From positions 1-52,339 of the forward strand of contig CALKJP010000068.1 in NCBI GenBank assembly GCA_937995645.1: DNA of 52,339 nt, read 5' to 3'. Every line of letters begins with the position of its first letter. Position 1 is the stretch's first letter. The position numbers were made by a program, and so were the translations under genes. The DNA comes from an uncultured Bacteroidia bacterium. Its GTDB lineage: Bacteria > Bacteroidota > Bacteroidia > JACCXN01. Under the pieces are notes generated by a model. It was not told the origin of the DNA and did no database searches. It saw nothing but the letters and a program-made list of their open reading frames with translations. Below, piece by piece: positions 7,125-52,339 of the stretch.

Positions 7125-7493
7125 ATGCACAGAGATGATATAATTGAACCGGCATTAGAACATATACATGGAGAAGAAGAAGGAAAAAAGAAGCGAGCCG
7201 TAATTTGGAAAATATTTTGGTTATTATTAGTAGTAACAATAGTAGAAGTAGGTTTAGGTTTTAAATTTTCAAGAGTTCCTGATGCCAAACCTTTTTTACT
7301 TATTACATTTATTACCCTTACAATTGTAAAAGCATTTTACATTGTAATGTCATATATGCATTTAGGCGATGAAAAGAAAAATTTCCGTTGGACAGTTTTA
7401 GCTCCATTTATTTTATTTGCATTATACTTAATTTTTATCGTATTAACAGAAGCTATTTATAGTTTTAAAATGGACCAGAATTTTAACTGGTAA
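7125..7493 (+). CDS. cytochrome c oxidase subunit IV family small membrane protein
   Basis: 122 aa with three predicted TM helices (IFWLLLVVTIVEV..., ...FITLTIVKAFYIVMSYMHL...). Position and size fit caa3-type subunit IV. The ATG of the next gene overlaps its stop. Confidence 0.6.
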   Translation: MHRDDIIEPALEHIHGEEEGKKKRAVIWKIFWLLLVVTIVEVGLGFKFSRVPDAKPFLLITFITLTIVKAFYIVMSYMHLGDEKKNFRWTVLAPFILFALYLIFIVLTEAIYSFKMDQNFNW

Positions 7494-8212
7494 TGAGCAA
7501 TAATTCTGACAGTACTTTTAAAAGCAGCAGGACTCGTAATTTAATAATTCTACTTACCATCCTGCTGTTTCCTACTTTACTCTACTTCTTTTTAGCAACA
7601 GGTAAACATAATTTCATCTCATTGCCAATTTATGGCGAAAGAGAGCTTGTAACTAAAATTATAGATGGTAAAGAAGTTTCGGATACTATCTACCATACCA
7701 TCCCCGATTTTAAATTCGTTAATCAAAATGGAGATACCATTACAAAAAAGGATTTGGAAGGAAAAATTTATGTAGCTAATTATTTCTTTGCTACATGTCC
7801 GACTATTTGTCCCAAAATGGCGGTTAATTTAAAATACATTCAGGATCGTTTTATTGAAACCCCTGATGTAATGATTATTTCTCATACAGTAAATCCGGAG
7901 CATGATAGCGTACCGGTTTTAGCCGAATATGCTAAAACTGTTCATGCGAACAATGAGCGCTGGTTTTTTGTTACTGGTAATAAAGAAGATCTTTATCGAC
8001 TTGCCTTAGAGGGTTATCTATTAAATGCAAGTGAAGATGTATTAGCTCCCGGAGGTTTTTTACATTCAGAACAAGTGGTGCTGGTTGATAAAGAAGGAAG
8101 AATTAGAGGATTTTACGATGGTACAAGTATTTCTGAAATTAAAAAAAATCTTATTGACGATATTAAACTGCTAATTGCAGACTATATGAAACCAAGAAAG
8201 GAAAAGAAATAA
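7493..8212 (+). CDS. SCO1/SenC family copper chaperone
   Basis: 239 aa with an N-terminal TM anchor. It has a thioredoxin-like core with the CPTICP (CxxxC) motif and a downstream conserved His (ISHTVNPEHD). Confidence 0.85.
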   Translation: MSNNSDSTFKSSRTRNLIILLTILLFPTLLYFFLATGKHNFISLPIYGERELVTKIIDGKEVSDTIYHTIPDFKFVNQNGDTITKKDLEGKIYVANYFFATCPTICPKMAVNLKYIQDRFIETPDVMIISHTVNPEHDSVPVLAEYAKTVHANNERWFFVTGNKEDLYRLALEGYLLNASEDVLAPGGFLHSEQVVLVDKEGRIRGFYDGTSISEIKKNLIDDIKLLIADYMKPRKEKK

Positions 8213-8962: not shown

Positions 8963-8980
8963 TTATTGTTCTTTAAAAAA

Positions 8981-9127
8981 ACTTATCAAGAGGGGTGGAG
9001 AGATTGGCTCTATGAAACCCCGGCAAAGTGAAATCCCCCCATTGAGAAGGGATTTAGGATTATGCAGAGCAAGTCATAATCCACACCAGTGCCAAATCCT
9101 GTCCGCCTCAGGTGGATAAAGATAAGT
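8981..9127 (+). promoter_or_regulatory. SAM-I (S-box) riboswitch aptamer in the metH leader
   Basis: ACTTATCAAGAGGGGTGGAGAGATTGGCTCTATGAAACCCCGGCAA...AGTGCCAAATCCTGTC...GGATAAAGATAAGT matches the S-box core CUUAUCAAGAG-GGUGGAGGGA-UGGCCC-AUGAA-CC-GGCAA...GUGCCAA-UCC...AAAGAUGAG. The P1 (CTTATC/GATAAG) and P2 (GAG/CTC) pairs covary with it. Confidence 0.85.
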
Positions 9128-9162
9128 CGGAAAAAGATTTTAATGTTATAACAACAATTTAT

Positions 9163-9195
9163 AAGTCCCATCCGATTACGGTTGGGACTTTTGGT
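9163..9195 (+). terminator. putative riboswitch expression-platform hairpin (terminator-like)
   Basis: AAGTCCCA (9163-9170) pairs with TGGGACTT (9183-9190) and is followed by TTGGTTATT, just before the metH ATG at 9200. The U-tract is weak. Confidence 0.45.
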
Positions 9196-9199
9196 TATT

Positions 9200-12100
9200 A
9201 TGGATATCAAAAAAGATTTACAACAACGCATTTTAGTAATTGATGGTGCCATGGGCACCATGATACAGCGCTATAAATTACAAGAAGCAGATTACCGCGG
9301 AGAGCGTTTTAAAAACTGGCATAGCGATTTAAAAGGTAACAATGATTTACTTGTACTAACACAACCCGATATAATTAAAGAAATACATAAGCAATACATA
9401 TTAGCAGGTGCCGATATTATTGAAACTAACACCTTTAACGCACAAAAAATTTCATTAGCTGATTACCACATGGAAAATCTTGCTTATGAAATAAATCTGG
9501 AAGCCGCAAAAATTGCTAAACAAGCAGTAAATGAAGTTAAGAAAGAAAATATTTATATTGCAGGAGCCATTGGGCCAACTAACAGAACTTTGTCTCTCTC
9601 GCCCGATGTAAATAATCCCGGATATCGCGCCATAAAATGGGATGAATTAGTTGAGGCATATATCGAACAGGTAAACGGGTTAGTAGATGGCGGTGTAGAT
9701 TTGCTACTTGTAGAAACTATTTTTGATACTTTGAACGCGAAAGCAGCATTGTTTGCCATACAATCAGTATTTGAACAAAAAAACATGGAACTTCCGATAA
9801 TGATTTCGGGAACCATTACCGATGCCAGCGGAAGAACATTAAGCGGACAAACAGTTGAAGCATTTTTAAATTCGGTATCGCATGCAAATATTTTAAGTAT
9901 TGGTTTAAACTGTGCATTAGGAGCAAAAGATATGCGTCCTTACTTAAAAGAACTTTCAGAAAAAGCGCCATATTATATCAGTGCCTATCCCAATGCCGGT
10001 TTACCCAATCAGTTTGGAGAATATGATGAAACACCACATGACATGGCATGTCAAATTCACGATTTTTTAGAAAGTGGATTTGTAAATATTGTAGGCGGTT
10101 GTTGCGGAACAACGCCCGAACATATTGCACACATTGCAGAACATGCTCGCAATGCCAAACCAAGAGTAATACCTCAAATTGAACCCTATCTACGATTAAG
10201 CGGATTAGAAGCCGTAACATTAAGACCCGACAGTAATTTTATGAATATTGGAGAACGAACTAATGTTACCGGTTCTAAAAAATTTGCACGATTAATTCTC
10301 GAAGGAAAATATGATGAAGCACTTTCTGTTGCAAGAGAACAGGTAGAAGGCGGTGCACAGGTAATTGATATTTGCATGGATGAAGGGATGTTGGATGCTG
10401 TAGAAGCTATGACTACTTTTTTAAACTTAATTGCAGCAGAGCCTGATATATCGCGTGTTCCAATAATGATTGATTCATCAAAATTTCATGTAATTGAAGC
10501 CGGATTAAAATGTATTCAGGGGAAAGGAATTGTCAATTCAATTTCATTAAAAGAAGGTGAAGAAGAATTTATTCGTCAGGCTAAGCTGGTAAAAAAATAT
10601 GGTGCTGCAACCGTAGTAATGGCTTTTGATGAACAAGGACAGGCAGATACTTTGCAGCGCAGAATTGATATTTGCAAACGTGCTTATAATATATTGGTAA
10701 ATAAAGTTAAGTTTCCTCCGCAGGATATTATTTTCGACCCTAATATATTTCCAGTTGCGACAGGAATGGAAGAGCATCGCAAAAACGCTGTTGATTATTT
10801 TGAAGCTACACGTTGGATAAAACAAAATTTACCACTAGCAAAAGTTAGCGGTGGAGTGAGTAATGTTTCATTTTCGTTTAGAGGAAATGATTATGTAAGA
10901 GAAGCCATTCATTCGGCATTTTTATTTCATGGAATTAAAGCAGGAATGGATATGGGCATAGTTAATCCTTCGCAATTACAAGTGTATGATGAAATAGAGA
11001 AAGAATTGTTGGAATTGGTAGAAGATGTTTTGCTGGATAGAAAAGACGATGCTACAGAAAAATTAATTGCTTATGCAGAAAAAATAAAATCTCAAAAATA
11101 TAATACAAAGGATAAAGAAGAAGAAAAAAATGCATGGAGAAATTTATCGCTTCAAGAACGCATTACACATTCATTAGTAAAAGGTATTGATGAATATGTA
11201 GAAGTGGATATGCTTGAGGCATTAAGTGTTTATTCCGCACCATTAGAAATTATAGAAGGACCTTTAATGACCGGAATGAATGTGGTAGGAGACTTGTTTG
11301 GAAGCGGAAAAATGTTTTTACCACAGGTAGTTAAAAGTGCACGCGTAATGAAAAAAGCAGTAGCTTTTTTGCAACCATATATTGAGGAGGCGAAGAATAA
11401 GGTTGAAGAAGTGCACATAACACACCCCCTAACTCCCTCTATAGAGGGGGAAATAAATAATAGTGTAAATGTTTCTCATGAGGAGAAAATAAAAAGTAGT
11501 ATGGATAATTTTCAAAAAGGAGAAGAAAATGCTATTACAAACAATGATAAAGATTTGAGCAATAAAACTCCCCTCTTGAGAGGGGCCGGGGGTGTGTCAA
11601 AAAGAAAAATAATTCCATACAATCCAAAATTAAAAAAACTCGCAAGAGAATTAAGAAATAACCCTACTCAATCTGAAAAAATACTATGGAAAAAACTAAA
11701 AGGTAAATATGCCGGAAAATATGATTTTCATAGACAAAAACCCTTAGATAATTATATTGTTGATTTTTTCTGTTATGAATTGCAATTGGTGATTGAATTA
11801 GACGGAAAAACACATCACATTCAAGAGGTTTATGAAAAAGACATCGAGAAAGAAAATAAATTGAATGAATTAGGTTTGAATGTTCTTCGTTTAAAAGATG
11901 AACAAATAGCTACTCAACTTCCCGTTGTATTAAGATTTATTGATGCATATATAGAGTGTTACGAAAAAGGTGATTTAAGTGAATTGATGGGAGATAATTT
12001 GCCTTTAAATTGTTTGACGGGGAATGAAATTAACACACCCCCTACCCCCCTCTCAAGAGGGGGCAATATAACTACCCTTACAAATGGCCGGAATACAATT

Positions 12101-13723
12101 ATCCTCACAAAAGAAGGGAATACAGCTTCCATCTTAGAAGATGAGACTGAAACTCCAATTGCAAACAAGGGAATTGTAACACCATTATCAGAAGGAGTAT
12201 CAGAAACTTCTGCCTCAATCAAAGAAAATGAAACTCCCCTCTTGAGAGGGGCCGGGGGTGTGTCAAAAAACACTGCCGGTAAAATTTTATTAGCTACCGT
12301 AAAAGGCGATGTTCACGATATAGGCAAAAACATTGTGGCAGTAGTATTGGGTTGCAATAATTATGAAATAATTGATTTGGGAGTAATGGTTCCTGCAGAA
12401 AAAATTCTGGAAACAGCCCGAAAAGAAAACGTTGATATTATTGGTTTAAGCGGATTAATAACACCTTCGTTAGACGAAATGGTTTATGTAGCCAAAGAAA
12501 TGGAGCGGCAAAATTTTAATATTCCGTTGTTAATTGGTGGCGCAACTACCTCTAAAGTACATACCGCAGTTAAAATAGAACCTAATTATACAAAAGGACC
12601 TGTAGTACATGTGTTAGATGCTTCACGCTCAGTACCTGTTGCGGGCAGTTTATTAAATAACGAAAAAGAAGAATTTGTTAAGGGCGTAAAAGATGAATAT
12701 GCTAAAATGCGTGAACACTACAGTAAACATAAAGATTCAAAAAACTATATAAGCTTAGTAAATGCACGCAAAAATAAATTTCCTATTGTTTGGAATCAAA
12801 ACGATGTTATAACACCAAAAAAAATAGGGGTAACAGTTTTTGACCATATAGATTTATCAGTTTTAAAAAATTATATTGATTGGACACCCTTTTTCCAAAC
12901 ATGGGAGCTTGCCGGAAAATTCCCGAAAATATTAGAAGACGAAATTGTAGGAGCTGAAGCAAAAAAACTTTATGCAGATGCAGGTAAAATGTTAAATAAA
13001 ATAATTTCCGAAAAATGGATTTCTGCAAAAGCTGTTATTGGCTTATTCCCGGCTAATACCGTAAACGATGATGATATTGAAATTTATGCAGACGAAAACA
13101 GAAATGAAGTAATTGCCATCAATCATAATTTACGTCAACAAACACAAAAAGCTCAGGGAGCATATAACATGTGCCTTGCTGATTTTATAGCGCCTAAAGA
13201 AAGTGGTATAAAAGATTATATGGGAGCTTTTGTGGTAACAGCCGGAATAGGTATTGAAAAATGGATTGAAAAATTTGAAAGAGAACATGATGATTACAGC
13301 AGTATATTACTAAAAGCCTTAGCAGATAGATTAGCCGAAGCACTGGCAGAATATATGCACGAGCAGGTAAGAAAAGAATACTGGGGTTATGCAAGCAATG
13401 AAAATTTGGATAATGAATCGTTAATTAAAGAAAAATATCAAGGCATACGTCCTGCTCCGGGCTATCCGGCATGCCCCGACCACACAGAGAAAATAACACT
13501 GTTTAAGTTATTAAATGCAGAAAAAAATACAGGTGTTAAATTAACCGAAAGTTTAGCCATGTATCCGGCAGCATCGGTTAGTGGCTGGTATTTTGCACAT
13601 CCGCAATCGCAATATTTTGGTATCGGAAAAATAGAAAAAGATCAGGTATCAGATATTGCAAAAAGAAAAAACAAATCTTTAGACGAAATGGAGCGTTGGT
13701 TATCTTCTAATCTAAATTATTAA
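9200..13723 (+). CDS. metH: cobalamin-dependent methionine synthase carrying a roughly 286-codon in-frame insertion
   Basis: All MetH modules are present and colinear: Hcy-binding ([13 protein letters not shown]), pterin-binding ([15 protein letters not shown]), cap ([17 protein letters not shown]), B12-binding ([13 protein letters not shown], DxHxxG) and the AdoMet activation domain ([11 protein letters not shown]). The ORF track starts at TTG 9182; ATG 9200 ([16 protein letters not shown]) is more likely. Confidence 0.95.
11420..11450 (+). repeat. GC-rich palindromic unit R1 (forward type)
   Basis: ACACACCCCCTAACTCCCTCTATAGAGGGGG, containing the perfect palindrome CCCTCTATAGAGGG. Confidence 0.8.
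11567..11597 (-). repeat. GC-rich palindromic unit R2 (reverse type)
   Basis: ACTCCCCTCTTGAGAGGGGCCGGGGGTGTGT. Its reverse complement aligns with R1 and R3. It lies within a 39-nt stretch identical to the one around R4. Confidence 0.85.
12033..12063 (+). repeat. GC-rich palindromic unit R3 (forward type)
   Basis: ACACACCCCCTACCCCCCTCTCAAGAGGGGG. Confidence 0.85.
12233..12263 (-). repeat. GC-rich palindromic unit R4 (reverse type)
   Basis: ACTCCCCTCTTGAGAGGGGCCGGGGGTGTGT, identical to R2. The shared flank AAACT...GTCAAAAA extends the identity to 39 nt. Confidence 0.85.
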
Positions 13724-13726
13724 ACT

Positions 13727-14653
13727 TTATTTTAGTTTAAGCACATCCCCTATTTTAGGCTGATAATCGAAGGGTAAATTGTTTAGTTTATATAAGCGTT
13801 TTAGTTTTATTCCATGCATTTGAGAAATGCTTCGCATGGTTTCTCCTTTGGTGATAGTGTGTGTTGCTACATCGCCTTTTCTTCGTTTGGGTTGTAAGTA
13901 AATTAATTCTCCTTCTTTACAAATATCAGATTTTTCTAAATCATTGTATTTGTAAATTTGCCATAATCCCATTTCGTATCTGTGAGCAATTTTATAGTAG
14001 GTGTCACCTTTTTGTGCTACAATATAGCGTATGTTGTTTTTAGTGGAAAATTCATAGTTTTTTCTTTCAGGTTTTTTAGAACTTATACTGCTTTTAGCAT
14101 GAAGCGATTTAGGCAACTCATCTAACTTATCAAATAGATACAGCTCATTTTTTTCAATAATTTCAATTAATAATTCGGCATATTTGGGGTGTGTAGCATA
14201 GCCTGCTTTCTTTAATCCATAAGCCCATCCTTTGTAATCTGTTATTTTCAAGTCAAAAAGTTCTGCATACCATTTTCTTCCTTTTAAAAAAAGAGAATGA
14301 TCTCTGTATGATTCATCCGCATCGCTGTATTTTCTAAAGCATTCGTTTTTTTCATCATCATCTTGTATAAAGGTTGGTCCATCCCATTCTTTATGACATT
14401 TAATTCCAAAATGATTTTTTGCATATTTTGCAAGCGGACTATTACCATCGCCCGATTCTAATATGCCTTGAGCTAATTTAATACTGGCTGGGATATTAAA
14501 CTCCAACATTTCGCGTATGGCTATATCTTTATATTTTTGAATATATTCCTCTCTGGATATGCGCGTTTCAGAAGGCTGTGCAATTACACTTATAGGCAAT
14601 TTAAATGTAATTAAAAATAATAAGATGATGATATATATAGTATTTAAGCGCAT
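13727..14653 (-). CDS. secreted peptidoglycan hydrolase: glucosaminidase domain plus two LysM domains
   Basis: 308 aa with a signal peptide. Glucosaminidase block SIKLAQGILESGDGNSPLAKYAKNHFGIKC. Two C-terminal LysM repeats (YIVAQKGDTYYKIAHRYEMGLWQIYKYN..., HTITKGETMRSISQMHGIKLKRLYKLN...). Confidence 0.85.
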   Translation of the reverse strand: MRLNTIYIIILLFLITFKLPISVIAQPSETRISREEYIQKYKDIAIREMLEFNIPASIKLAQGILESGDGNSPLAKYAKNHFGIKCHKEWDGPTFIQDDDEKNECFRKYSDADESYRDHSLFLKGRKWYAELFDLKITDYKGWAYGLKKAGYATHPKYAELLIEIIEKNELYLFDKLDELPKSLHAKSSISSKKPERKNYEFSTKNNIRYIVAQKGDTYYKIAHRYEMGLWQIYKYNDLEKSDICKEGELIYLQPKRRKGDVATHTITKGETMRSISQMHGIKLKRLYKLNNLPFDYQPKIGDVLKLK

Positions 14654-41912: not shown

Positions 41913-43226
41913 ATGTCACAAACAGCAGAACAAACCAAGTATAAAGTTAAAGATATTTCTTTAGCTGAGTGGGGTAGAAAAGAAATCAAATTAGCCGAAG
42001 CCGAAATGCCGGGCTTAATGTCGCTTCGCGAAGAATACGGCAAAAGCAAGCCTTTAGCAGGTGCTCGCATTGCAGGATGTTTGCACATGACTATCCAAAC
42101 AGCCGTTCTTATTGAAACGTTAGTTGAATTAGGAGCTGAAGTTTCATGGTCATCATGTAATATTTTCTCAACACAAGATCATGCTGCTGCTGCAATTGCT
42201 GCCGCAGGAATTCCGGTATTTGCATGGAAGGGAATGAACGAACAGGAATTCGATTGGTGTATCGAACAAACTTTATTTGCGTTTAAAGATGGTAAGGCAT
42301 TAAACATGATTTTAGACGATGGAGGTGATTTAACCAATATGGTATTAGATCGCTATCCGGAATTGGTAAAAGATATTCGTGGTTTATCAGAAGAAACAAC
42401 CACCGGTGTTCACCGTTTATACGAAAGAATGCGTAAAGGAACATTGCCAATTCCGGCAATTAATATTAACGACTCGGTAACAAAATCAAAATTCGACAAC
42501 AAATATGGTTGCCGCGAATCACTGGTAGATGCTATTCGCAGAGCTACCGATTTAATGTTAGCCGGAAAAGTGGCGGTAGTAGCAGGATTTGGCGATGTAG
42601 GTAAAGGTTCTGCCGAATCATTAAAAGATGCAAAAGTAAGAACCATTGTTACCGAAATTGACCCAATTTGTGCATTACAGGCAGCTATGGAAGGTTATGA
42701 AGTTAAAAAAATGATTGATGCCGTTAAAGAAGCTGATATTATTGTTACAGCAACCGGAAATTGCAATATTATTACCGAAAAACATTTCAGATTAATGAAA
42801 CATAATGCCGTAGTTTGTAATATAGGCCATTTTGATAACGAAATAGATATGGCATGGTTAAATAAACATTATGGACATACAAAAGACACTATTAAGCCAC
42901 AAGTAGATAAATATACCATAGACGGTAAAGATATTATTGTTCTTGCAGAAGGACGTTTAGTAAACTTAGGTTGTGCCATGGGACATCCTTCGTTTGTAAT
43001 GTCAAATTCATTTACCAACCAAACTTTGGCTCAAATTGAACTATGGAACAATTATGCCAAATACGAAAATAAAGTTTATACCCTTCCTAAACATTTAGAC
43101 GAAAAAGTAGCTCGTTTACACTTAAAGAAAATTGGTGTTGAAATAGACGAGTTAACTGACGAACAGGCCGAATATATTGGCGTACCTAAAAACGGTCCGT
43201 TTAAAAACGACATGTACAGATACTAA
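41913..43226 (+). CDS. ahcY: adenosylhomocysteinase
   Basis: 437 aa. [30 protein letters not shown], the NAD site [10 protein letters not shown] and HFDNEID. Confidence 0.95.
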
Positions 43227-43339: not shown

Positions 43340-45991
43340 ATGGCAAAAAACAGAGCAGCAATTAAAAGCGCAACAGCCGAAAAGGAAACCCCTTTAATGA
43401 AACAATACAATACAATTAAAGGAAAGTATCCCGATGCGCTATTGCTTTTTCGAGTGGGAGATTTTTATGAAACATTTGGAGAAGATGCCATTAAAGCGGC
43501 AAACATCTTAGGTATTGTTTTAACCAAACGCGCCAATGGTGCTGCATCTTATGTAGAGTTAGCCGGTTTTCCTTATCATTCCTTAGATGCTTATTTGCCT
43601 AAGTTAGTAAGGGCGGGACAACGTGTTGCCATTTGCGAGCAAATGGAAGATCCTAAGATGACTAAAACCATTGTAAAACGAGATGTTACAGAATTAGTTA
43701 CTCCCGGGATTTCATACAATGATAAAGTTTTAGAACACAAAGCAAATAATTTTCTGGCAGTAGTACACTTAGATAAAGACGTGCATGGAGTTGCTTTTTT
43801 AGATGTATCTACCGGAGAATTTTTAATAGCACAGGGAAAAATAGAATACATCGAAAAATTAGTCCATAATTTTCGTCCAAGTGAAATTATATTTCAGAAG
43901 CATAAACGAAAAGAAGTATCTGAAAAATTTTCCGAAAAATTTTATACCTATGGATTAGAAGACTGGGTATTTACCATAGAATTTGCTTACGAAAAATTAT
44001 TAAATCATTTTCGAACCAATTCCTTAAAAGGTTTTGGCATTGAAGATTTACAACAGGCAATAATTGCAGCCGGAGCAGCATTGCATTATTTGTCAGAATC
44101 GCATCAAGATCGAGTTCAGCACATTGCATCTATTTCGCGCATTGAAGAAGATAATTATGTGTGGATTGATAAATTTACTGCACGCAATCTTGAGCTTTTT
44201 TCATCGCACAATCAAGACGCTGTTACATTAATTGATGTAATTGACAATACCGTTTCCCCAATGGGAGCAAGGCTTTTAAAGCGATGGTTAGCTCTGCCAT
44301 TGAAAGAAGTAAATGCTATCAATGAACGCCTGGATGTTGTTCAATATTTTTATGACAACAAGGATTTTGCACAACAACTTTCGCAAATCATACATCAGGC
44401 GGGAGATATGGAGCGTATTATCTCCAAAGTAAGTGTAGGGAGAATTACACCGCGTGAAACCATGCAACTAAAACGCTCGCTGGATGCAGTGGCTCAGATA
44501 AAAGAGTTATGCGAAAAAAGCGGAAATAAGCAGTTGCAGAAAATTGCCGACCAGCTAAATCCCTGCAAAACAGCAATAGAAAAAATTCAAAAGGAGCTAA
44601 TTGCCGAACCGCCTGCCAATATTAATAAAGGAGGATACATTGCACAAGGCGTAAATACAGAACTTGATGAGTTGCGCAATATCGCCTATTCCGGAAAAGA
44701 TTATTTGTTGCAAGTTCAAAAACGCGAAAGCGAACGCACCGGCATACCTTCACTTAAAGTTGCATTTAACAATATTTTTGGTTATTATATCGAAGTAACC
44801 AATGCACATAAAAATAAAGTCCCAACAGATTGGATTCGCAAACAAACACTCGTAAATGCCGAGCGATACATTACCGAAGAATTAAAACAATACGAAGAAA
44901 AAATTCTGGGTGCTGAAGAAAAAATTTTAGCCATTGAGCAAAAAATATTTCAGGAATTAATTGCACATCTTACAGATTTTATTGTGCCTGTTCAGTTAGA
45001 TGCATCACTATTGGCGCGATTAGATTGTTTAATCACTTTTGCCGATAATGCACGAAAAAATAATTACTGTAAACCTGTTGTAAACGATTCAAAAGTATTG
45101 GATATTAAACAAGGGCGCCATCCTGTAATTGAAAAGCAACTGAAAGTAGGCGATAAGTATGTGGCTAACGATGTATTTTTAGATACCGATACGCAACAGA
45201 TAATTATGATTACCGGCCCAAATATGAGTGGTAAATCTGCATTGCTAAGACAAACGGCATTAATAGTTTTATTGGCGCAAATAGGTTCATTTGTACCTGC
45301 TGATGCTGCCACTATTGGAATAGTTGATAAAATTTTTACACGCGTGGGCGCATCCGATAATATTTCTTCAGGAGAATCTACTTTTATGGTAGAAATGAAT
45401 GAAACCGCAAGCATCTTAAATAATATTTCTGACAGAAGTTTGATTTTACTCGATGAGATAGGCAGAGGTACCAGTACCTATGATGGTATTTCTATTGCGT
45501 GGGCAATTGCCGAATATTTACATGAAAATGTCAAAGCACGCCCTAAAACATTATTTGCTACCCATTATCACGAATTGAATGATATGGAGCAAATATTTAC
45601 ACGAATAAAAAATTATAATGTATCGGTTAAGGAAATTAATAACAAAATAATTTTCTTAAGAAAATTAGTCCCTGGCGGCTCAGAGCACAGCTTTGGCATC
45701 CACGTAGCCGAAATGGCAGGAATGCCTTCAATTGTGGTAAAAAGAGCTAAAGAAATTTTAAAACAATTGGAACAAAGTCATTCGCAAGCAGAAATTTTTT
45801 CTTATGAAAACAACAAAAAGAAAAATACCAATCAGGTTTCATCCAACAACTTTCAACTTAGTTTCTTTCAATTAGACGACCCCGTTTTGTCTCAAATTAA
45901 AGAACAAATTATCCATATAGATATTGACAATTTAACACCGGTTGAAGCATTATTAAAGTTGCACGAAATCAAGAAATTAATTGGTGGGTAG
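43340..45991 (+). CDS. mutS: DNA mismatch repair protein MutS
   Basis: 883 aa. [30 protein letters not shown], Walker [23 protein letters not shown] and THYHEL. Confidence 0.95.
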
Positions 45992-46050
45992 AAAAAAATT
46001 GCTTTATTTGTATAACAAATTAAAAAAATAATTAATTTTGCCATCCCAAA

Positions 46051-46144
46051 GCGGAAATAGCTTCCCGAAGTTTCGGGAGTAGAGTACGCAAAGAAAAGCG
46101 GAAATAGCTTCCCGAAGTTTCGGGAGTAGAGCACGCAAAGAAAA
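46051..46144 (+). repeat. two tandem 47-nt units, each a rearranged copy of the 5' third of tRNA-Gly
   Basis: GCGGAAATAGCT-TCCCGAAGTTTCGGGA-GTAGAG(T/C)AC-GCAAAGAAAA occurs twice (46051 and 46098) with one mismatch. The third period, at 46145, is the real tRNA. Confidence 0.85.
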
Positions 46145-46217
46145 GCGGAAATAGCTCAGTTGGTAGAGCACAACCTTGCCAAGGTTGGGGTCGCGAGTTC
46201 GAGTCTCGTTTTCCGCT
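46145..46217 (+). tRNA. tRNA-Gly (anticodon GCC)
   Basis: Hand-folded cloverleaf. Acceptor GCGGAAA/TTTCCGC; D arm GCTC-AGTTGGTA-GAGC; anticodon arm CAACC-TTGCCAA-GGTTG; T arm GCGAG-TTCGAGT-CTCGT. 73 nt with no encoded CCA. Confidence 0.9.
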
Positions 46218-46229
46218 CTTATTAAGTTA

Positions 46230-46275: not shown

Positions 46276-46360
46276 GCCCAGGTGGTGGAATTGGTAGACA
46301 CGCAGGACTTAAAATCCTGTGGCCATTGCGGCCGTGCGGGTTCAAGTCCCGCCCCGGGTA
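46276..46360 (+). tRNA. tRNA-Leu (anticodon TAA), class II with a long variable arm
   Basis: Acceptor GCCCAGG; TG; D arm GTGG-AATTGGTAG-ACAC; anticodon arm CAGGA-CTTAAAA-TCCTG; variable arm GGCC-ATTGC-GGCC; T arm GCGGG-TTCAAGT-CCCGC; 3' acceptor CCCGGGT, then A. My fold gives one A:C mismatch and a G:U pair in the acceptor stem. Confidence 0.8.
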
Positions 46361-46364
46361 CACA

Positions 46365-46395
46365 AAAAGCGCTCCGAATTTCGGGGCGCTTTTTT
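46365..46395 (+). terminator. rho-independent terminator after tRNA-Leu
   Basis: GCGCTCCGA-ATT-TCGGGGCGC followed by TTTTTT. Confidence 0.7.
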
Positions 46396-46490
46396 AGTTT
46401 CTTTTATCTTAATCAATGAAATAAGCTTTATGAAAAAATCAAAACGCAAATCCTTTGCGTTCGTGATTTTTTCTTTTGTAAAAAAAGCTT

Positions 46491-48173
46491 ATGGAAAACA
46501 AATCACTTTTTGAAAATCTAAAAGAAATTTCTAGTTACTTAGAAGAACATCCTGATTCTTTAAAAAATAAAGAAAGAATTGATGTTCACCTTCAAAATCT
46601 TAGCGAACCATTAACGGAAATTAAAAGTCAAGTTTTATGTGAAAGCAATCTTCAGGCATTATTATTTTCTATTGTGTTTATCGAAAACTCTTTAAAGGGT
46701 CATTGTGAAATAACGGATATAAGAGAAAGACTAAATTGCTATGATTCGGATATGTTTGAAATAAAGCGTGAAATGGAATGGCTAATTTCAAAGAAGATTA
46801 TCCAGTGCAATATAGTAAATAGAAGAAGTTATTATTCTGGTTACTTAATTCCTCAGGCTCTAATGAAATGTATTCTGAATAATAATGTGTTTATTGATGA
46901 GTATAAGAGAATATGTGATGAAAATGAAAATATATGGATTGAACTTAAGACAATTTTTGATTTAAAAGAAATTGGAGAAATTGATGAATCGCAGTTTTTT
47001 CAAGATTTTGAAAGTATTCTTTTAAAGTATAAAGATAAAAAGTTTAATAGTGCTATTAAAAAAATTAAATTAACAAATATTGAGTATATAGTCCTTGCAA
47101 AAATTTGTTTAGACTGGATTAATAATGAAAAAACCTGTGTAGAAGATGTTATAAAGTTTACATTTGATAGTTATGTAAAACAAATTAATGCACGCACTAA
47201 AATTCTTGGTGCATCTTCAAAATTGTTAAAATATAGATTGATAGAGCCTTACGAAAGCATGTTTGCTAGTAGCAGGTATTATATTTTATCTAATTATGGA
47301 ATAAGAGAGTTTATAGAACCCGAGTTAATTCCTCAAGCAAAAAAAACTACATTTTCTCCAAGTTTAGGCTCTGTAATTGCAAAATCAGTTATTACAGAAA
47401 AAGAATTGTTTTATCCAAATGAGGTTTTGTCTACCATAGAACAAATCAAATTTTCACTTTCTGATAATAACTATAAGCTAATTACCAAGCGTTTAAAAGA
47501 AGTGAATTTACCTCAAAACATTGGTGTGTTATTGTATGGAAAACCAGGTACTGGAAAAACAGAACTGGTTTATCAATTGGCAAAATCTTCACAACGCAAT
47601 ATCTATAAAATTGATGTGTCCAGCATTAGAGATAAATATGTTGGCGAATCAGAAAAGAAAATGAAAGAAGCTTTTCAAGAGTATAGAACTTATATGAAAA
47701 TATGTAATACAACTCCAATTTTATTGTTTAATGAGGCTGATTCAATTATTTCAAAAAGATTAGCACTTAATAGTAGTGTTGATCAAATGAATAATAATAT
47801 TCAAAATATACTTTTGGAAGAGCTTGAAAACTTTAAAGGGATTTTTATTGCTACAACAAATCTGACTAACAATATAGATAAAGCTTTTGAAAGAAGATTT
47901 TTATATAAAGTTGAAATTCCAAATCCTGATATTGAAACTCAGGCTAAAATATGGAAATCAAAATTAAAATTTAATCTTTCTGATGATATAATAAGGGATT
48001 TGTCGCATAATTATGAATTAACAGGTGCTCAAATCGACAATATTGCAAGAAAAAGTATTATTAATTATGTGCTAAATAATACCTATCCTGATTTTGCCTT
48101 ACTGGATAATTGGTGCAGAGAAGAAACTATTAAAAAGTCGGAAATAAACAAAATCGGTTTTTTTAAGAATTAA
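46491..48173 (+). CDS. classical-AAA ATPase with a roughly 330-aa unassigned N-terminal region
   Basis: C-terminal module: Walker A GKPGTGKT (47538..47561), KYVGESEKKMKEAF (pore-loop-like YVG), Walker B-like ILLFNEADS, sensor-1 FIATTN and AFERRF. I recognise no motif in the N-terminus. Confidence 0.8.
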   Translation: MENKSLFENLKEISSYLEEHPDSLKNKERIDVHLQNLSEPLTEIKSQVLCESNLQALLFSIVFIENSLKGHCEITDIRERLNCYDSDMFEIKREMEWLISKKIIQCNIVNRRSYYSGYLIPQALMKCILNNNVFIDEYKRICDENENIWIELKTIFDLKEIGEIDESQFFQDFESILLKYKDKKFNSAIKKIKLTNIEYIVLAKICLDWINNEKTCVEDVIKFTFDSYVKQINARTKILGASSKLLKYRLIEPYESMFASSRYYILSNYGIREFIEPELIPQAKKTTFSPSLGSVIAKSVITEKELFYPNEVLSTIEQIKFSLSDNNYKLITKRLKEVNLPQNIGVLLYGKPGTGKTELVYQLAKSSQRNIYKIDVSSIRDKYVGESEKKMKEAFQEYRTYMKICNTTPILLFNEADSIISKRLALNSSVDQMNNNIQNILLEELENFKGIFIATTNLTNNIDKAFERRFLYKVEIPNPDIETQAKIWKSKLKFNLSDDIIRDLSHNYELTGAQIDNIARKSIINYVLNNTYPDFALLDNWCREETIKKSEINKIGFFKN

Positions 48174-48240
48174 TGTAATTAACTTGACTCATTAGTAAAT
48201 ATCATTTAATTTAATCAAATCATTTTTAATTTATGCAATT

Positions 48241-48489
48241 ATGAAAGAATCAAAAGAATTTAATCAGTTTGGAGAAAAGCTAATGCAAAGAGTTCATGAA
48301 ATAATGGACGAATTTGAATTAAGTAAAGCCAATAAAAATGGATTAGCAATTTTTAATAAAGAAGAACGATTAAAATACGTTAGCGAAGCATTAAAAAATG
48401 AAGACATTAATTTAGATGATGATACCCTGAAGATTTTTATCGAAACAATAGATGAGATTTCTAACAATGAAAGAGAACAATCACAATAA
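48241..48489 (+). CDS. small acidic hypothetical protein (82 aa)
   Basis: D/E-rich, predicted helical, with no signal peptide. It overlaps the next ORF by 23 nt. Confidence 0.5.
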   Translation: MKESKEFNQFGEKLMQRVHEIMDEFELSKANKNGLAIFNKEERLKYVSEALKNEDINLDDDTLKIFIETIDEISNNEREQSQ

Positions 48490-48796
48490 TGATATATCTT
48501 TAGAAAAAACACTTTCAAAAATTGATGATTTAGCTTTGCAACATAATCAAGCAGAAGAAGCATGGTTATTTGAAGACCTGGAATTAAACGCCATTAAAGT
48601 AATCGCTGATTATTGCAGATATAATAATCTTGCAGAAGTTGCCGGTAAAATTGATGAGCTATTTATTAAAGCTGATGAAGATTTAGATGCTTACGAAGAA
48701 TTATTTGCTTTAATTGAGAATACAGAAAATACGTTTACTGTAGATAATTCATATAAACAATTAAGAGATTATTTAATTCAAAAATTTTGGCCATAA
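48467..48796 (+). CDS. small very acidic hypothetical protein (109 aa)
   Basis: Starts MKENNHNN. Rich in D/E (AEEAWLFEDLELN..., DEDLDAYEELFALIENTEN). The stop is 3 nt before the next ATG. The start is uncertain (48452 or 48467). Confidence 0.5.
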   Translation: MKENNHNNDISLEKTLSKIDDLALQHNQAEEAWLFEDLELNAIKVIADYCRYNNLAEVAGKIDELFIKADEDLDAYEELFALIENTENTFTVDNSYKQLRDYLIQKFWP

Positions 48797-48799
48797 ACT

Positions 48800-50854
48800 A
48801 TGACTAAGCTACTTTCAAAATCTAAATATAAGCTTGCAACATCTTGCCCAACTAAGTTATATTACGCAACATTTCCTAAAATTTATCCCAATAGCAACAG
48901 CGATAACGATTTTTTACAAGCATTAGCAGAAGGCGGTTATCAAATTGGTAAGTTAGCAACCTTTAAGTTTAGTTTTTTTGATAAAATATACTCCATTGAA
49001 ACGCTTGATACTAAAGAAGCATTAAAATTAACCAATGAAGCATTAAAGCATGAAAAAGTAATTATATACGAAGCCGCTTTTGTTTTTGAAAATTTACTGG
49101 TAAGAGTGGATGTACTGGTAAAAAAAGGCAATCAGATTACTTTATATGAAGTAAAAGCTAAAAGCTATTCTGAAGATGATGCCGGTTTTATTAATAAAAG
49201 CAAAGGGAATATTAACCCCAAATGGGAACCCTATTTATTTGATATTGCTTACCAAAAATGGGTAGTTTCAAAAGTTTTACCCGAGTATAATTTAAGTGCT
49301 TATTTAACTCTGGTTAACAAAGACCATAAATCTTCGAAAGAGAGCTTAAATAAACTTTTTAAAATAAAAAGAGATATAATAAAGGATGTAGAAAACCCGG
49401 ATAATATTATTAGCAGAAGGGTATTTATTGAAACGCCCGAAAATTTAAAAACGGAAGATTTAGATTTAGACCTATTGATAAATGTAAATGTAGATGATAT
49501 AATTCAGGATATATGGAATAAGAAGCATACCATTGATTTTAAAAATAATCAACTCAATATGCATAGCTACGAGAAGCAACTAAAATTCCTTTCAGAAGCT
49601 TTAATTACAGGTGAAAAAATTGAAGCCACTATAACTTCAAAATGTAAGAGTTGTGAGTTTTATAAATCTCCTTCTGATTTAAAAGAAAATGAAAAAAGCG
49701 GAAGATGGGAGTGTATTAAAAAAGCTTGGAATTTAAAGGATGAACAACAAAGCGAACAATTGCTTTTTAATTTATATAATGGTTTTAGAGGAGAAACGTT
49801 TTTCGAATTATTAAGTCAGAAAAAATATTTTTTAAAGGATGTCTCAGAAGATGATTTACTAAATAAAAATGAGCAAAAACAAAAAGAGAAAGGAGAAGAA
49901 TTACATGATGTGTTTTCATTTACTAATACCGAAAGAAGGGTAACACAATGTTTGGCAGAAAAAAATAAAGACAAAACAGTATATGTTAAAAAACTTGGAC
50001 TTAAAGAGGCGTTAAACGATTTGGAATCAAAATATCCACTTCATTTTATAGATTTTGAAACCATTGCATCTGCCATACCGCATCATAAAGGATTAAGACC
50101 TTATCAAACTATTGCTTTTCAATATTCGCATCATATTTTACATAAAGATGGTCGTGTTGAGCACAAAGGCGAGTGGATTAACTTAAGCAAAGGCACATTC
50201 CCAAGCTTCGATTTTGTTAGAAATTTAAAAAACGAAGTAAACGATGGACATCCTATTTTTAGATATTCCAATCATGAAAATACAGTATTGAATGATATTG
50301 CCGATCAGTTAGAAAATTCTGCTGAAAGAGATAAAAACGAATTAATTGCCTTTATAAAATCTATTACTAACAATAAAGAAGAAAAACACAAAGGCTCCAA
50401 CAGCATGATTGATTTGTGCGATTGGATTAAAAAGTACTATTACAATCCTTTAACCAAAGGCTCAAATAGCATTAAAAAAGTCTTACCTGCTGTAATAGCT
50501 ACATCGCATTTAATAAAAGAAAAATACAGCAAGCCCTATTACAGTAATAATTTTAAAGAAGGTATTATATGGTATCAATTGGATGAAAATAAAAATCCAA
50601 TAGACCCTTACAAATTATTACCCCCATTAAAAACAAGTTTGCAAATAGATTCAGACAATGATGATTTTGAAGACAATGAAGATGGAATTAAAAATATAAA
50701 TAGTGGAGGTCCTGCCATGGCGGCCTATGCCGAAATGCAGTTTGACGATATGGATGATAGCACCTTTAACGAATACAAAAACGCCCTACTCCGCTATTGC
50801 GAATTAGACACCTTAGCCATGGTGATGATTTTTGAGCATTTGAGGGAGGTGTAA
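48800..50854 (+). CDS. two-nuclease fusion: N-terminal Cas4/RecB-like Fe-S PD-(D/E)XK domain plus C-terminal DEDDy-type RNase H-fold (DUF2779-like) domain
   Basis: N-terminus: SKSKYKLATSCPTKLYY, YEAAF, RVDVLVKKGNQITLYEVKAK (D...ExK), then CKSCEF...WEC (with the first Cys this gives a 4-Cys cluster pattern). C-terminus: HFIDFETIASAIP (DxE), YSNHENTVLNDI and YCELDTLAMVMIFEHL (Yx3D). Confidence 0.7.
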   Translation: MTKLLSKSKYKLATSCPTKLYYATFPKIYPNSNSDNDFLQALAEGGYQIGKLATFKFSFFDKIYSIETLDTKEALKLTNEALKHEKVIIYEAAFVFENLLVRVDVLVKKGNQITLYEVKAKSYSEDDAGFINKSKGNINPKWEPYLFDIAYQKWVVSKVLPEYNLSAYLTLVNKDHKSSKESLNKLFKIKRDIIKDVENPDNIISRRVFIETPENLKTEDLDLDLLINVNVDDIIQDIWNKKHTIDFKNNQLNMHSYEKQLKFLSEALITGEKIEATITSKCKSCEFYKSPSDLKENEKSGRWECIKKAWNLKDEQQSEQLLFNLYNGFRGETFFELLSQKKYFLKDVSEDDLLNKNEQKQKEKGEELHDVFSFTNTERRVTQCLAEKNKDKTVYVKKLGLKEALNDLESKYPLHFIDFETIASAIPHHKGLRPYQTIAFQYSHHILHKDGRVEHKGEWINLSKGTFPSFDFVRNLKNEVNDGHPIFRYSNHENTVLNDIADQLENSAERDKNELIAFIKSITNNKEEKHKGSNSMIDLCDWIKKYYYNPLTKGSNSIKKVLPAVIATSHLIKEKYSKPYYSNNFKEGIIWYQLDENKNPIDPYKLLPPLKTSLQIDSDNDDFEDNEDGIKNINSGGPAMAAYAEMQFDDMDDSTFNEYKNALLRYCELDTLAMVMIFEHLREV

Positions 50855-50891
50855 ACAATATCTGGGTTACAAATTATTTAAGAAATAACTT

Positions 50892-51758
50892 ATGAAAAAA
50901 GAAAATATAGAACTAAAAAGAGAAGATATAGATATGCTTAATATAATTAAAAAAGTATTCAATTCAATAAATAATAATGATTGGAATGAACTTCAAAATT
51001 TTTATAACGAATTAATTGAAAATCCTTTATTTAAAAAGAATGCCATTCCGCTTAAAGATATTGATTTTACTATTAATAAAGAAGATTTACAAAGTATTAA
51101 AACTTTTATTCAAAATAATTTTAGTTCTAATGATGGTTCTTATAAAAAACAAAATGGAGAAGATTGGACCCCGCTTGAAAAATTATTTTTTAGTGTTTTA
51201 TGGAAAAATAATCAAGTAACCAGATTTAAACATTTAATTGACGGCATTAAAAACGAATTAGAACGTTCAGAAAAAATGAACAACACACCAAATGAATACA
51301 ATGGTGATAATATACCTGGTGCTGATAATGATTATTTTGAAAGCAATTTTGTGTTTAAACAGTTTGGTAGGTTCTTAGTAAACCCTAACTGTATTCCTAT
51401 TGTAGATCAGCATGTATTGAGAGCTTTTTTATATTATAAAATTACAGATAATGTTGAAAAAAATGTTAACCTGAAATTAGATTTTCAAGATCGAGAAACT
51501 CTTCATCAATATTTAGATATAATAATTGAAGATACAGAAGAATTAACTTTAAGAAAACTACAAATAGAGGCACTAAGCAATACATTAAAGTTAAATAAAA
51601 ACAAAAAGAATTCTTACTATAAACTATATAAAGAATATTTAAAATGGTACAACAAATTAAATTTGAATTGTAAAGAATATAATAGATTAATTGATAAGAC
51701 GTTATTTTTAATTGGTAAAACTTTAAATAAGGATAAAAATGGAAGAAACAATAGGTAA
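50892..51758 (+). CDS. hypothetical protein (288 aa), no family recognised
   Basis: Long ORF on the same strand, 37 nt after the nuclease gene. It is N/K-rich with no TM helix or signal peptide. Confidence 0.5.
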   Translation: MKKENIELKREDIDMLNIIKKVFNSINNNDWNELQNFYNELIENPLFKKNAIPLKDIDFTINKEDLQSIKTFIQNNFSSNDGSYKKQNGEDWTPLEKLFFSVLWKNNQVTRFKHLIDGIKNELERSEKMNNTPNEYNGDNIPGADNDYFESNFVFKQFGRFLVNPNCIPIVDQHVLRAFLYYKITDNVEKNVNLKLDFQDRETLHQYLDIIIEDTEELTLRKLQIEALSNTLKLNKNKKNSYYKLYKEYLKWYNKLNLNCKEYNRLIDKTLFLIGKTLNKDKNGRNNR

Positions 51759-51806
51759 GTGTATTAACCATTTTTAAGCATAAAAATATTGGAAATTTGA
51801 TAAGAA

Positions 51807-52339
51807 ATGAAAAAGTATATAACAAATTTTCATTATAATTTGAACTAGCACTTTGGTTAAGAGATAAAGGATTTGATGTATATTTTGAAAAAAATATTAA
51901 TACTTTAATAAGTAATAAATCGATAGAAGTTTATTCTATTAAAAAAGAAATAGACTTATCAATTAAAAAAATAATAAATGGATTGCATTTATCGAATTAA
52001 AATTTCCTATACATGGTAAAGTTCCTGAGACAGTTTTTGATATAGTTAAAGATTTAGAACTTACGAACAATATACATTGTATGTTTAATAATCAAGGAGA
52101 GGGTGATTCTCTATCTTTTTACCAAATAAAAGTAACAAATGATGTAAAGTTTTTCTCCAATTAAAAAAATGAAAAGAGAAATAACTCTAGGACCTCGAAA
52201 TATTATTCTATATTAAGAGATGAAAAGCCTATTGTAGGAGATTTTACTAAACCAACAGGTGATAATGTGTATACTATTATAGAAAAAAAATTTAACCCAA
52301 ATTTTGCAATAAGAAAACTGGTTATACATCAAAGCACTT
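51807..52339 (+). pseudogene. decayed PD-(D/E)XK-like gene (runs off the window)
   Basis: MKKYITNFHYNLN-TAG(51846)-ALWLRDKGFDVYFEKN...KEIDLSIKK, then a frameshift in an A7 run (51965..51971). It continues WIAFIELKFPIHGKVPETVFDIVKDLE...VKFFSN-TAA(52162)-KNEKR...YSILRDEKPIVGDFTKPTGDNVYTIIEKKFNPNF.... The D...ELK spacing suggests a restriction-endonuclease-like fold. Confidence 0.5.

Follow-up and report, generated by a model that had tools for sequence, protein, structure and literature searches.

A five-gene operon beside tRNA-Leu in an uncultured Bacteroidia bacterium and its kinship with a recurrent AAA ATPase, WYL regulator and nuclease module

Results

The window analysed here is an entire contig of 52,339 bp from an uncultured Bacteroidia bacterium, and near its right end lies an operon of five genes that encode, in order, a AAA ATPase (AAA550), two small proteins (sm1 and sm2), a predicted dual nuclease of the DUF2779 family, and p288 (Table 1). 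A preliminary description made from the sequence had proposed these five same-strand open reading frames (ORFs), and their positions and intervals hold, with gaps of 67, -23 (the overlap of sm1 and sm2), 3 and 37 nt. The tRNA-Gly/tRNA-Leu pair that it placed directly upstream was recovered by both ARAGORN and Rfam, and the turn to AT-rich sequence that it noted is evident in windowed G+C content, which falls from 0.34-0.38 (42-47 kb) to 0.27-0.31 (47-51 kb) and then to 0.22 (51-52 kb). Because a strong terminator stands between tRNA-Leu and the first gene, the operon is implied to have a promoter of its own within 46395-46490.

Table 1. Features of the operon and its surroundings in the window (aa, amino acids; pI, isoelectric point)
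Feature	Position	Strand	Remarks
S-adenosylhomocysteinase	41913-43226		core gene left of the block
mutS	43340-45991		last core gene before the tRNA pair
tRNA-Gly(gcc)	46145-46218	+	ARAGORN, Rfam
tRNA-Leu(taa)	46276-46361	+	ARAGORN, Rfam; the tRNA pair is the left border of the low-G+C block
Intrinsic terminator hairpin	46364-46394	+	14-bp stem and T-run; 3′ of tRNA-Leu, before the operon
Palindrome AACGCAAATCCTTTGCGTT	46443-46461	unassigned	30 nt before the AAA550 start codon
AAA550	46491-48173	+	560 aa; Pfam PF00004
sm1	48241-48489	+	82 aa; acidic, pI 4.6
sm2	48467-48796	+	109 aa (114 aa from start 48452); acidic, pI 4.35
DUF2779 dual nuclease	48800-50854	+	684 aa; PF11074
p288	50892-51758	+	288 aa; basic, pI 8.5; last conserved operon gene
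AT-rich tail	51760-52339	+	G+C 0.22; broken frames to the contig end; unlike the sister islands

The operon is conserved in sister genomes, where the same gene order, AAA-sm-DUF2779-p288, is found in loci L002/L003 (DUF2779 82% identical) and L004/L005 (71%). Ratios of nonsynonymous to synonymous divergence (dN/dS) were computed against L002, which is ~79% identical at the DNA level, and came to 0.12 for AAA550, 0.12 for sm2, 0.11 for DUF2779 and 0.29 for p288; for sm1, synonymous divergence (dS) is saturated and gives no ratio (dN 0.26). Such low values indicate that the five ORFs are real genes, and the purifying selection seen for four of them, together with the tight spacing, the shared order in sisters and the lack of any terminator-like site inside the five-gene block, argues that they form a real operon.

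Synonymous divergence also bears on the history of the block. Its dS against L002 is 0.8-1.1 and that of mutS is 0.93, showing that the block has descended vertically, along with the core genome, since the window and L002 split. The variable island of the preliminary description therefore stands as a low-G+C block beside a tRNA, but not as a freshly acquired island. In L002 the operon occupies the same mutS/tRNA-Leu site and the block runs ~6 kb further before core genes follow, and we tentatively regard the window's genes as the first operon of a vertically inherited accessory block of ~10 kb. The genes could instead be cargo of a mobile element at tRNA-Leu (an integrative island, a satellite or a conjugative element) that serve the element in anti-restriction, recombination or exclusion, as their tRNA-adjacent position and low G+C content might suggest. 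A second island at the same tRNA-Leu in L004 (1-7428), whose boundary is a 60-nt 3′ fragment of tRNA-Leu, does carry a tyrosine integrase, and its other genes include T5orf172/MUG113 and one for a 2,023-aa STAND-like NTPase; DUF2779 is also present on a few plasmids, among them the conjugative pPAES01. However, the L004 island, integrase included, is a different insertion that lies to the left of this fragment. Neither the window nor L002 has an integrase, att repeats or transfer genes beside the block, and no convincing att-type direct repeats were found in L002 or L004. DUF2779 occurs on 30 of 72,556 plasmids and 9 of 2.9 million viral contigs and is missing from all 50,697 phage genomes, figures that led us to reject a phage or plasmid origin for it, and full-length AAA550 was found on no viral contig. 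As block and core-gene dS are equal as well, service as mobile cargo seems to us very improbable.

The 684-aa protein matches PF11074 (DUF2779) over residues 415-557, with 90.6 bits against a cut-off of 23.3 (E 1e-25). Two sets of residues are invariant in an alignment of 30 sequences: C16/C282/C285/C305 with D104/E117-x-K119 in the N-terminal domain, the signature of a Cas4/RecB-like Fe-S PD-(D/E)XK nuclease, and D418/E420/D538/Y666/D670 in the C-terminal domain, that of a DEDDy 3′-5′ exonuclease with an RNase H fold. The match and these active-site residues bear out the Cas4-like/DEDDy fusion that the preliminary description had read in this protein. Its structural model has a predicted local distance difference test score (pLDDT) of 89.7 and a predicted template modelling score of 0.87, and whole-chain Foldseek matches are weak, comprising Cas4 (7mi4, probability 0.96, E 0.013), ACE1 (9iab), the DinG exonuclease domain and 3′hExo. 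The PADLOC hidden Markov model (HMM) for Cas4 gave E 0.2, a profile search of the PDB returned no match, and NF045869 (UU173, the Mycoplasma-type DUF2779) scored 26.6 bits, below its cut-off of 225.

The fusion architecture itself is already published. Majorek (2014) placed DUF2779 in a 3′-5′ exonuclease clade with a DUF83 PD-(D/E)XK partner domain (PMC3985635), and an mSphere paper of 2026 assigned a Cas4-like and DEDDy fusion by HHpred to MMSYN1_0389, which is quasi-essential in the minimal Mycoplasma JCVI-syn3.0 and whose DEDD domain has as its best published match MrfB, a mitomycin-C repair exonuclease (PMC13621843). The window protein has the two-domain architecture of this family (family F.17 of the RNase H-like superfamily) and keeps all catalytic residues, and it has all four Fe-S cysteines where the Mycoplasma protein has two. 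Unlike the published members, it lies in an operon with a AAA ATPase and is WYL-linked, as set out below. It shares the D...ExK motif and the 1+3 cysteine pattern with solo Cas4 and with AddB/RecB-type Fe-S nucleases, Cas4 being its best, if weak, fold match. In contrast to Cas4, the domain shares its chain with a DEDDy exonuclease and is accompanied by no cas1, cas2, CRISPR array or helicase; no CRISPR repeat array was detected in 40-52 kb and no Cas domains among the neighbour genes. The family comprises >3,356 clusters spread over phyla at a flat ~40% identity. The searchable literature, in which seven papers mention DUF2779 and two PF11074, yielded no defence assay and no gene-context or defence claim for the family, the supplementary tables of one survey paper hold no DUF2779 entry, and a 2014 CARF/WYL paper does not describe the neighbourhood of AAA550, WYL and nuclease genes reported below.

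AAA550 matches PF00004 at residues 346-477 (E 2e-27; 96.7 bits against a cut-off of 21.2), and residues 1-320 have no family match in Pfam and no sequence match in the PDB, in agreement with the earlier reading of a classical AAA module behind a large unassigned N-terminus. Walker A (GKPGTGKT, 350-357), pore loop 1 (KYVGESEK, 382-389) and the arginine fingers (FERRF, 466-470) align to VAT/p97/AFG2 in a phmmer alignment. Walker B reads LLF-N414-E415-AD, with Asn in place of the usual Asp of the IIFiDEIDSI found in VAT/p97; the N414 codon lies at 47730-47732, and the Asn is invariant in a 40-sequence family alignment. The AlphaFold model (pLDDT 84) shows a canonical AAA module after a helical N-terminal portion of ~300 aa, in which two helix-helix-helix-beta-hairpin units look winged-helix-like by secondary structure. 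Foldseek searches with the whole model, which are dominated by the AAA domain, gave Rpt/PAN, FtsH/AFG3L2, Vps4 and Msp1, all protein-translocating unfoldases, as top matches. We predict from motifs and model that AAA550 is a classical-clade AAA+ protein unfoldase with a pore loop of the Cdc48/Vps4 type.

Matches of AAA550 to named families are confined to the AAA domain: IetA in PADLOC (E 3e-22, residues 302-531, sub-threshold), IteA in NCBIfam (78.2 bits against a cut-off of 510) and TRIP13 in PADLOC (E 1.8e-11). Outside the clade, its AAA domain is most closely related to those of tandem-AAA proteins of 834-848 aa (L095 8001-11967, L097 280-4163). The genes of these proteins share operons with genes for a ClpP-like protease, a metallophosphatase, and ankyrin or Thg1-like proteins. 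These operons may represent another uncharacterised conflict system, and the protease and phosphatase beside the ATPase are consistent with a line of unfoldases whose effectors can be exchanged. Swappable effectors are a typical trait of defence systems.

The other three proteins have a far narrower distribution. An exhaustive HMMER search of 1.84 billion representative proteins found only two homologues of sm2, both in sister islands, and p288 likewise has only two among 5.8 billion proteins, both encoded directly 3′ of DUF2779 in sister islands; sm1, with two homologues only, is confined to the clade. Family HMMs of the three proteins detected no diverged homologues in other loci with AAA550 and DUF2779. 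The 288-aa protein proved as devoid of recognizable motifs as the preliminary description had found it (no family match in the Pfam, PADLOC, NCBIfam and PHROGs scans), and the two small proteins are acidic, as it had stated. In L004, sm1 and sm2 are fused in a single 187-aa ORF (9436-9999), and in the window and L002 they are separate, overlapping ORFs; these two genomes both have the split, which lies within a linker of low conservation. Judged by these searches, sm1, sm2 and p288 are lineage-specific accessories of one small Bacteroidia clade.

The sister islands extend beyond the point at which the window ends. Past the operon, L002 continues with further uncharacterised genes, including a 205-aa PolIII-finger-like ORF (13832-14449, E 4e-6), and a WYL regulator lies 5-7 kb downstream in both L002 and L004. 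Beside this regulator is a second module, consisting of a protein of 88-113 aa, a AAA/KAP-like ATPase of ~346 aa and a DprA/SLOG-like protein of ~202 aa (L002 15100-18092, L004 17149-20218, L008 3580-6769). In L002 the three genes (88, 348 and 202 aa) are divergent from the WYL regulator gene, and the L004 island has the same layout. The 202-aa DprA/SLOG-like family (phrog_768, E 5e-7) recurs near DUF2779 in L008 and L030. The window holds no WYL gene; as the contig ends 580 nt past p288, that of the window genome would be invisible, and only the sister genomes speak for it.

Gene neighbourhoods were surveyed independently from two sides, with ORFs called naively. On the DUF2779 side, neighbours were clustered in 80 reference-genome loci, 40 of which had at least 5 kb of flank on each side. 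The commonest neighbour is a WYL/WCX regulator, within 10 kb in 21 of the 80 loci (12 of the 40 with full flanks), followed by AAA550 in 10 of 80 (6 of the 40 within 5 kb). The typical layout is WYL(-)|AAA550(+)-[0-4 variable genes]-DUF2779(+), as in L006, L013, L023, L044, L045, L065 and L078, and the gap between AAA550 and DUF2779 narrows to 47-50 nt in L006 and L044. The intervening genes differ by clade and encode an NT5C-like nucleotidase, a low-molecular-weight-phosphatase-like protein, uncharacterised proteins or, in the window's clade, sm1/sm2. In a neighbour-joining tree of DUF2779, the window's whole clade (L002, L004, L006, L008 and L009) is linked to AAA550, WYL or both and several Bacteroidota sub-clades are enriched in such links, and the proteobacterial/firmicute half of the tree is nearly devoid of either.

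On the AAA side, 80 metagenome loci were sampled, many on truncated contigs. A WYL gene is present in 16-17 of them; in 13 cases it lies no more than 500 nt away, and it is often co-directional with the AAA gene, 4-30 nt past it. The same 80 loci contain a stand-alone DEDD exonuclease (RNase_T/Rv2179c-like, ~170 aa) in nine cases, DUF2779 in seven, PDDEXK_4 in three, and Fic proteins and metallophosphatases in four each, and a WYL or nuclease gene is found in 26 loci despite the truncations. AAA550, WYL and DEDD exonuclease genes follow one another in L125 (121-4855) and L163 (2717-6614), AAA550 and the exonuclease in L130, L136 and L158, and AAA550, WYL and PDDEXK_4 in L150; some of the compact AAA550/DEDD exonuclease operons have overlapping or abutting stop and start codons, and a Fic protein and a PDDEXK_4 nuclease are sometimes included. 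Because the linkage was recovered from both sides, we conclude that the recurrent unit, across phyla, is AAA550 with a WYL regulator and a nuclease. DUF2779 is the version of this unit in which both nuclease folds are fused, and the five-gene set of the window is a lineage-specific elaboration of it. Co-occurrence beyond this genome, which the preliminary description had proposed as a check for all five genes, thus holds for AAA550 and DUF2779 and fails for the set as a conserved unit, sm1, sm2 and p288 being found in the clade only.

It is also possible that no joint system exists, and that AAA550, DUF2779 and the orphans are functionally unconnected accessory genes that gather in common WYL-marked variable islands, the five-gene set being their juxtaposition in one lineage. 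The two large families are mostly apart, the genes between them vary from clade to clade, AAA550 proteins encoded beside DUF2779 (199-247 bits) do not resemble the window protein more than those encoded alone do (260-299 bits), and WYL regulators of the BrxR type mark defence islands in general (PMC9122601). Yet the adjacency was found independently from both sides and in several phyla, with operon-like spacing (the 47-50 nt noted above; 3-67 nt or overlap in the window), and at 9-15% it far exceeds the ~0.5% expected by chance within 5 kb, a rough figure that takes a gene to occur about once per 4-Mb genome. Moreover, AAA550 or WYL is repeatedly followed at once by an independent gene for the same DEDD fold, in some cases with overlapping or abutting stop and start codons, and the window's arrangement has been under purifying selection since the window, L002 and L004 split. 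For these reasons we hold mere co-residence to be distinctly unlikely.

In the 80 loci, the two genes nearest to DUF2779 on either side were scanned with Pfam and PADLOC. Pfam families in these positions include WYL/WCX, ADP-ribosylglycohydrolase, ResIII, PDDEXK_4, AbiEii-type AAA_21, SMC_N, McrBC, BrxC, Eco57I, HpaII, SLATT and HipA, with housekeeping genes intermixed, and PADLOC matches include PtuA, MADS, type IIG and type I restriction-modification enzymes, ZorD, SngB/C, BrxH, PD-T4-1 and many PDC candidates. A Pycsar-like pair, composed of a PycTM effector and a nucleotide cyclase-like gene, lies directly 3′ of DUF2779-WYL in L014 (13424-15012) and L072 (13054-14583). The description of the locus as a defence-type operon is partly sustained, insofar as AAA550 and DUF2779 neighbourhoods hold many known defence genes, and not for the five genes as a unit. 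Scans of the five proteins against PADLOC-DB 2.0, NCBIfam, Pfam and PHROGs matched no named defence system, as had been anticipated, the PADLOC-DB 2.0 run giving only the sub-threshold AAA-domain matches to IetA and TRIP13.

Discussion

We tentatively favour the view that the operon represents a recurrent WYL-linked ATPase-nuclease module that would most likely defend the cell against phages or other mobile DNA. In our working model the WYL protein, with its HTH-WYL-WCX (helix-turn-helix, WYL, WCX) arrangement, would control transcription upon a signal, either a nucleic acid or a nucleotide, that reports infection or injury to DNA, a role suggested by the known behaviour of BrxR, CapW, PafBC and DriD. 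The DUF2779 effector would then attack DNA ends of both polarities through its predicted PD-(D/E)XK and DEDDy domains. We speculate that AAA550, as a hexamer, remodels a protein partner and thereby either licenses the nuclease or holds it back; in the window's clade, the acidic sm1 and sm2 could together be this partner, in the role of inhibitor or adaptor. The most specific form of this proposal, in which AAA550, WYL and a DEDD/PD-(D/E)XK nuclease constitute a widespread, Bacteroidota-centred system of immunity or DNA surveillance, with a Walker-B-Asn unfoldase and a WYL protein gating a two-headed exonuclease, is one that we advance as rather doubtful.

Several observations weigh against a defence module of this kind. 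The pairing is facultative, with AAA550 at ~10-15% of DUF2779 loci and DUF2779 at ~5-9% of AAA loci; 59 of the 80 DUF2779 genes have neither partner, and DUF2779 was found near none of four hand-picked AAA550 homologues. The enrichment of defence genes near DUF2779 is qualitative. The WYL gene lies outside the window, and its presence in the window genome is something we infer from the sisters. The block is inherited vertically in its clade, the quasi-essential DUF2779 protein of JCVI-syn3.0 points to a housekeeping role in DNA metabolism for at least that subfamily, and Asn414 in Walker B may give AAA550 altered, slow or switch-like ATPase kinetics.

The main rival is a WYL-controlled module for the repair of DNA damage or replication stress, in which the WYL protein senses single-stranded DNA and switches on the genes, DUF2779 trims damaged or cross-linked ends of both polarities, and the AAA protein clears the way for the nuclease by removing proteins stuck on DNA, for example in DNA-protein cross-links or stalled complexes. 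PafBC and DriD are WYL regulators of DNA-damage responses and provide a precedent, and a WYL gene is the commonest neighbour of both the DUF2779 and the AAA550 families. On pPAES01, the genes close to DUF2779 include those for an SOS-response-associated peptidase and a zincin-like peptidase, and in the Spirochaetales locus L009 DUF2779 is followed directly by a gene for a PHP/PolIII-alpha-like polymerase of 775 aa (12033-14360), to which the PolIII-finger-like ORF of the sister islands may be added. Vertical inheritance of the block, the absence of both families from phages, the MrfB-like DEDD domain and the quasi-essential Mycoplasma homologue (PMC13621843) would likewise suit repair. In contrast, sporadic spread across phyla at flat ~40% identity with variable flanks would not, nor would the many neighbours that are bona fide defence genes, and no conserved linkage to recA, uvr, lexA or imuAB was found in the examined loci. 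Exchange of effectors on the scale seen here (DEDD exonuclease, PDDEXK_4, DUF2779, Fic, metallophosphatase and ClpP-like protein) would also be unusual for a repair system. On balance we judge the repair explanation unlikely.

If the module does serve defence, its kind is familiar (an NTPase paired with a nuclease, located in defence islands and controlled by a WYL protein), and the particular combination of a classical AAA unfoldase, a WYL protein and a DEDD/Cas4-like nuclease appears to be undescribed in PADLOC-DB 2.0, NCBIfam and the searchable literature. The nearest counterpart for the ATPase is IetAS, reportedly described by Gao et al. in 2020 as a AAA ATPase (IetA) with a serine protease (IetS). 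There, too, a classical AAA ATPase stands beside a hydrolytic effector in defence islands, and IetA is the best PADLOC and NCBIfam match of AAA550. IetAS differs in that IetS is an S8 serine protease, whereas here the effector is a nuclease and the N-terminus of the ATPase is unrelated; no subtilisin-like IetS protease, or protease domain of any sort, was detected in the five proteins by the library scans. With respect to regulation, the counterparts are the WYL-regulated BrxR-BREX and CapW-CBASS loci (said to be the work of Picton in 2022 and Blankenchip in 2022), where, as in the many distant loci in which a WYL gene abuts AAA550, an HTH-WYL-WCX regulator is divergent from, or inside, its presumed target operon in islands of the defence type. 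Unlike in those loci, the genes presumably controlled here are neither BREX nor CBASS and the WYL gene often sits between the AAA and nuclease genes as a member of their operon; in the window's clade it is 5-7 kb away, beside a second AAA module.

Gabija, Septu, PARIS and Lamassu share with the present module the logic of an NTPase joined to a nuclease effector, sometimes with small partner proteins. They use ATPases of the ABC/SMC type and TOPRIM, HNH or Cap4-type nucleases, whereas AAA550 has a classical AAA domain with a predicted substrate-threading pore loop. No significant PADLOC match to the GajA, PtuA, AriA or LmuB families was obtained for the five proteins, the p288-GajA match at E 0.045 being noise. 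A further analogy may lie in CBASS Cap6 (TRIP13) and HORMA proteins, where a AAA remodeller acts on small partners, as AAA550 could act on sm1/sm2; among the five proteins there was no match to a CD-NTase cyclase or a HORMA protein, and that to TRIP13 is at the level of the AAA domain.

DUF2779 is a large family with two predicted active nuclease domains, and its link to AAA550 and WYL gives testable hypotheses for three protein families at once; the compact three-gene WYL-AAA550-DUF2779 unit is clonable. A defence function would add a classical AAA remodeller and nuclease to architectures that mostly use ABC/SMC or STAND NTPases, and would enlarge the small set of characterised Bacteroidota defence systems. 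Were a gated immune or surveillance system to prove true, it would give the DUF2779 family, including the quasi-essential JCVI-syn3.0 member, its first function, and a repair module would bear on how Bacteroidota handle DNA damage.

Additional features of the window

A palindrome, CGCAAATCCTTTGCG, is kept 30 nt 5′ of the AAA gene in all three islands, namely the window, L002 (7644) and L004 (7642), and a second copy is present in L002 at 13491, upstream of the island's next operon. The palindrome at 46443-46461 is a candidate operator or small hairpin. As a general operator, GCAAATCCTTTGC was tried and rejected, since AAA550 and DUF2779 genes at other loci show no upstream enrichment of it.

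At the other end of the operon, the AT-rich tail had been described as a decayed restriction-endonuclease-like gene, an assignment that found no confirmation: its frames are broken, and a stitched 167-aa reading with a D...ELK-like string has no match in Pfam or the PDB and no similarity to the sister islands, which leaves a restriction-enzyme remnant at this position unsupported.

In the gap between mutS and tRNA-Gly, a 47-nt tandem repeat (2.3 copies, 98% identical, 46048-46156) overlaps the 5′ end of tRNA-Gly, and L002 contains partial tRNA-Leu duplicates (7436-7458 being identical to 7490-7512). These may be scars of earlier integration at the tRNA cluster. Far to the left of the operon, a SAM riboswitch (RF00162, 67 bits) occupies 8980-9128 on the + strand, upstream of a 1,513-aa ORF at 9182-13723.

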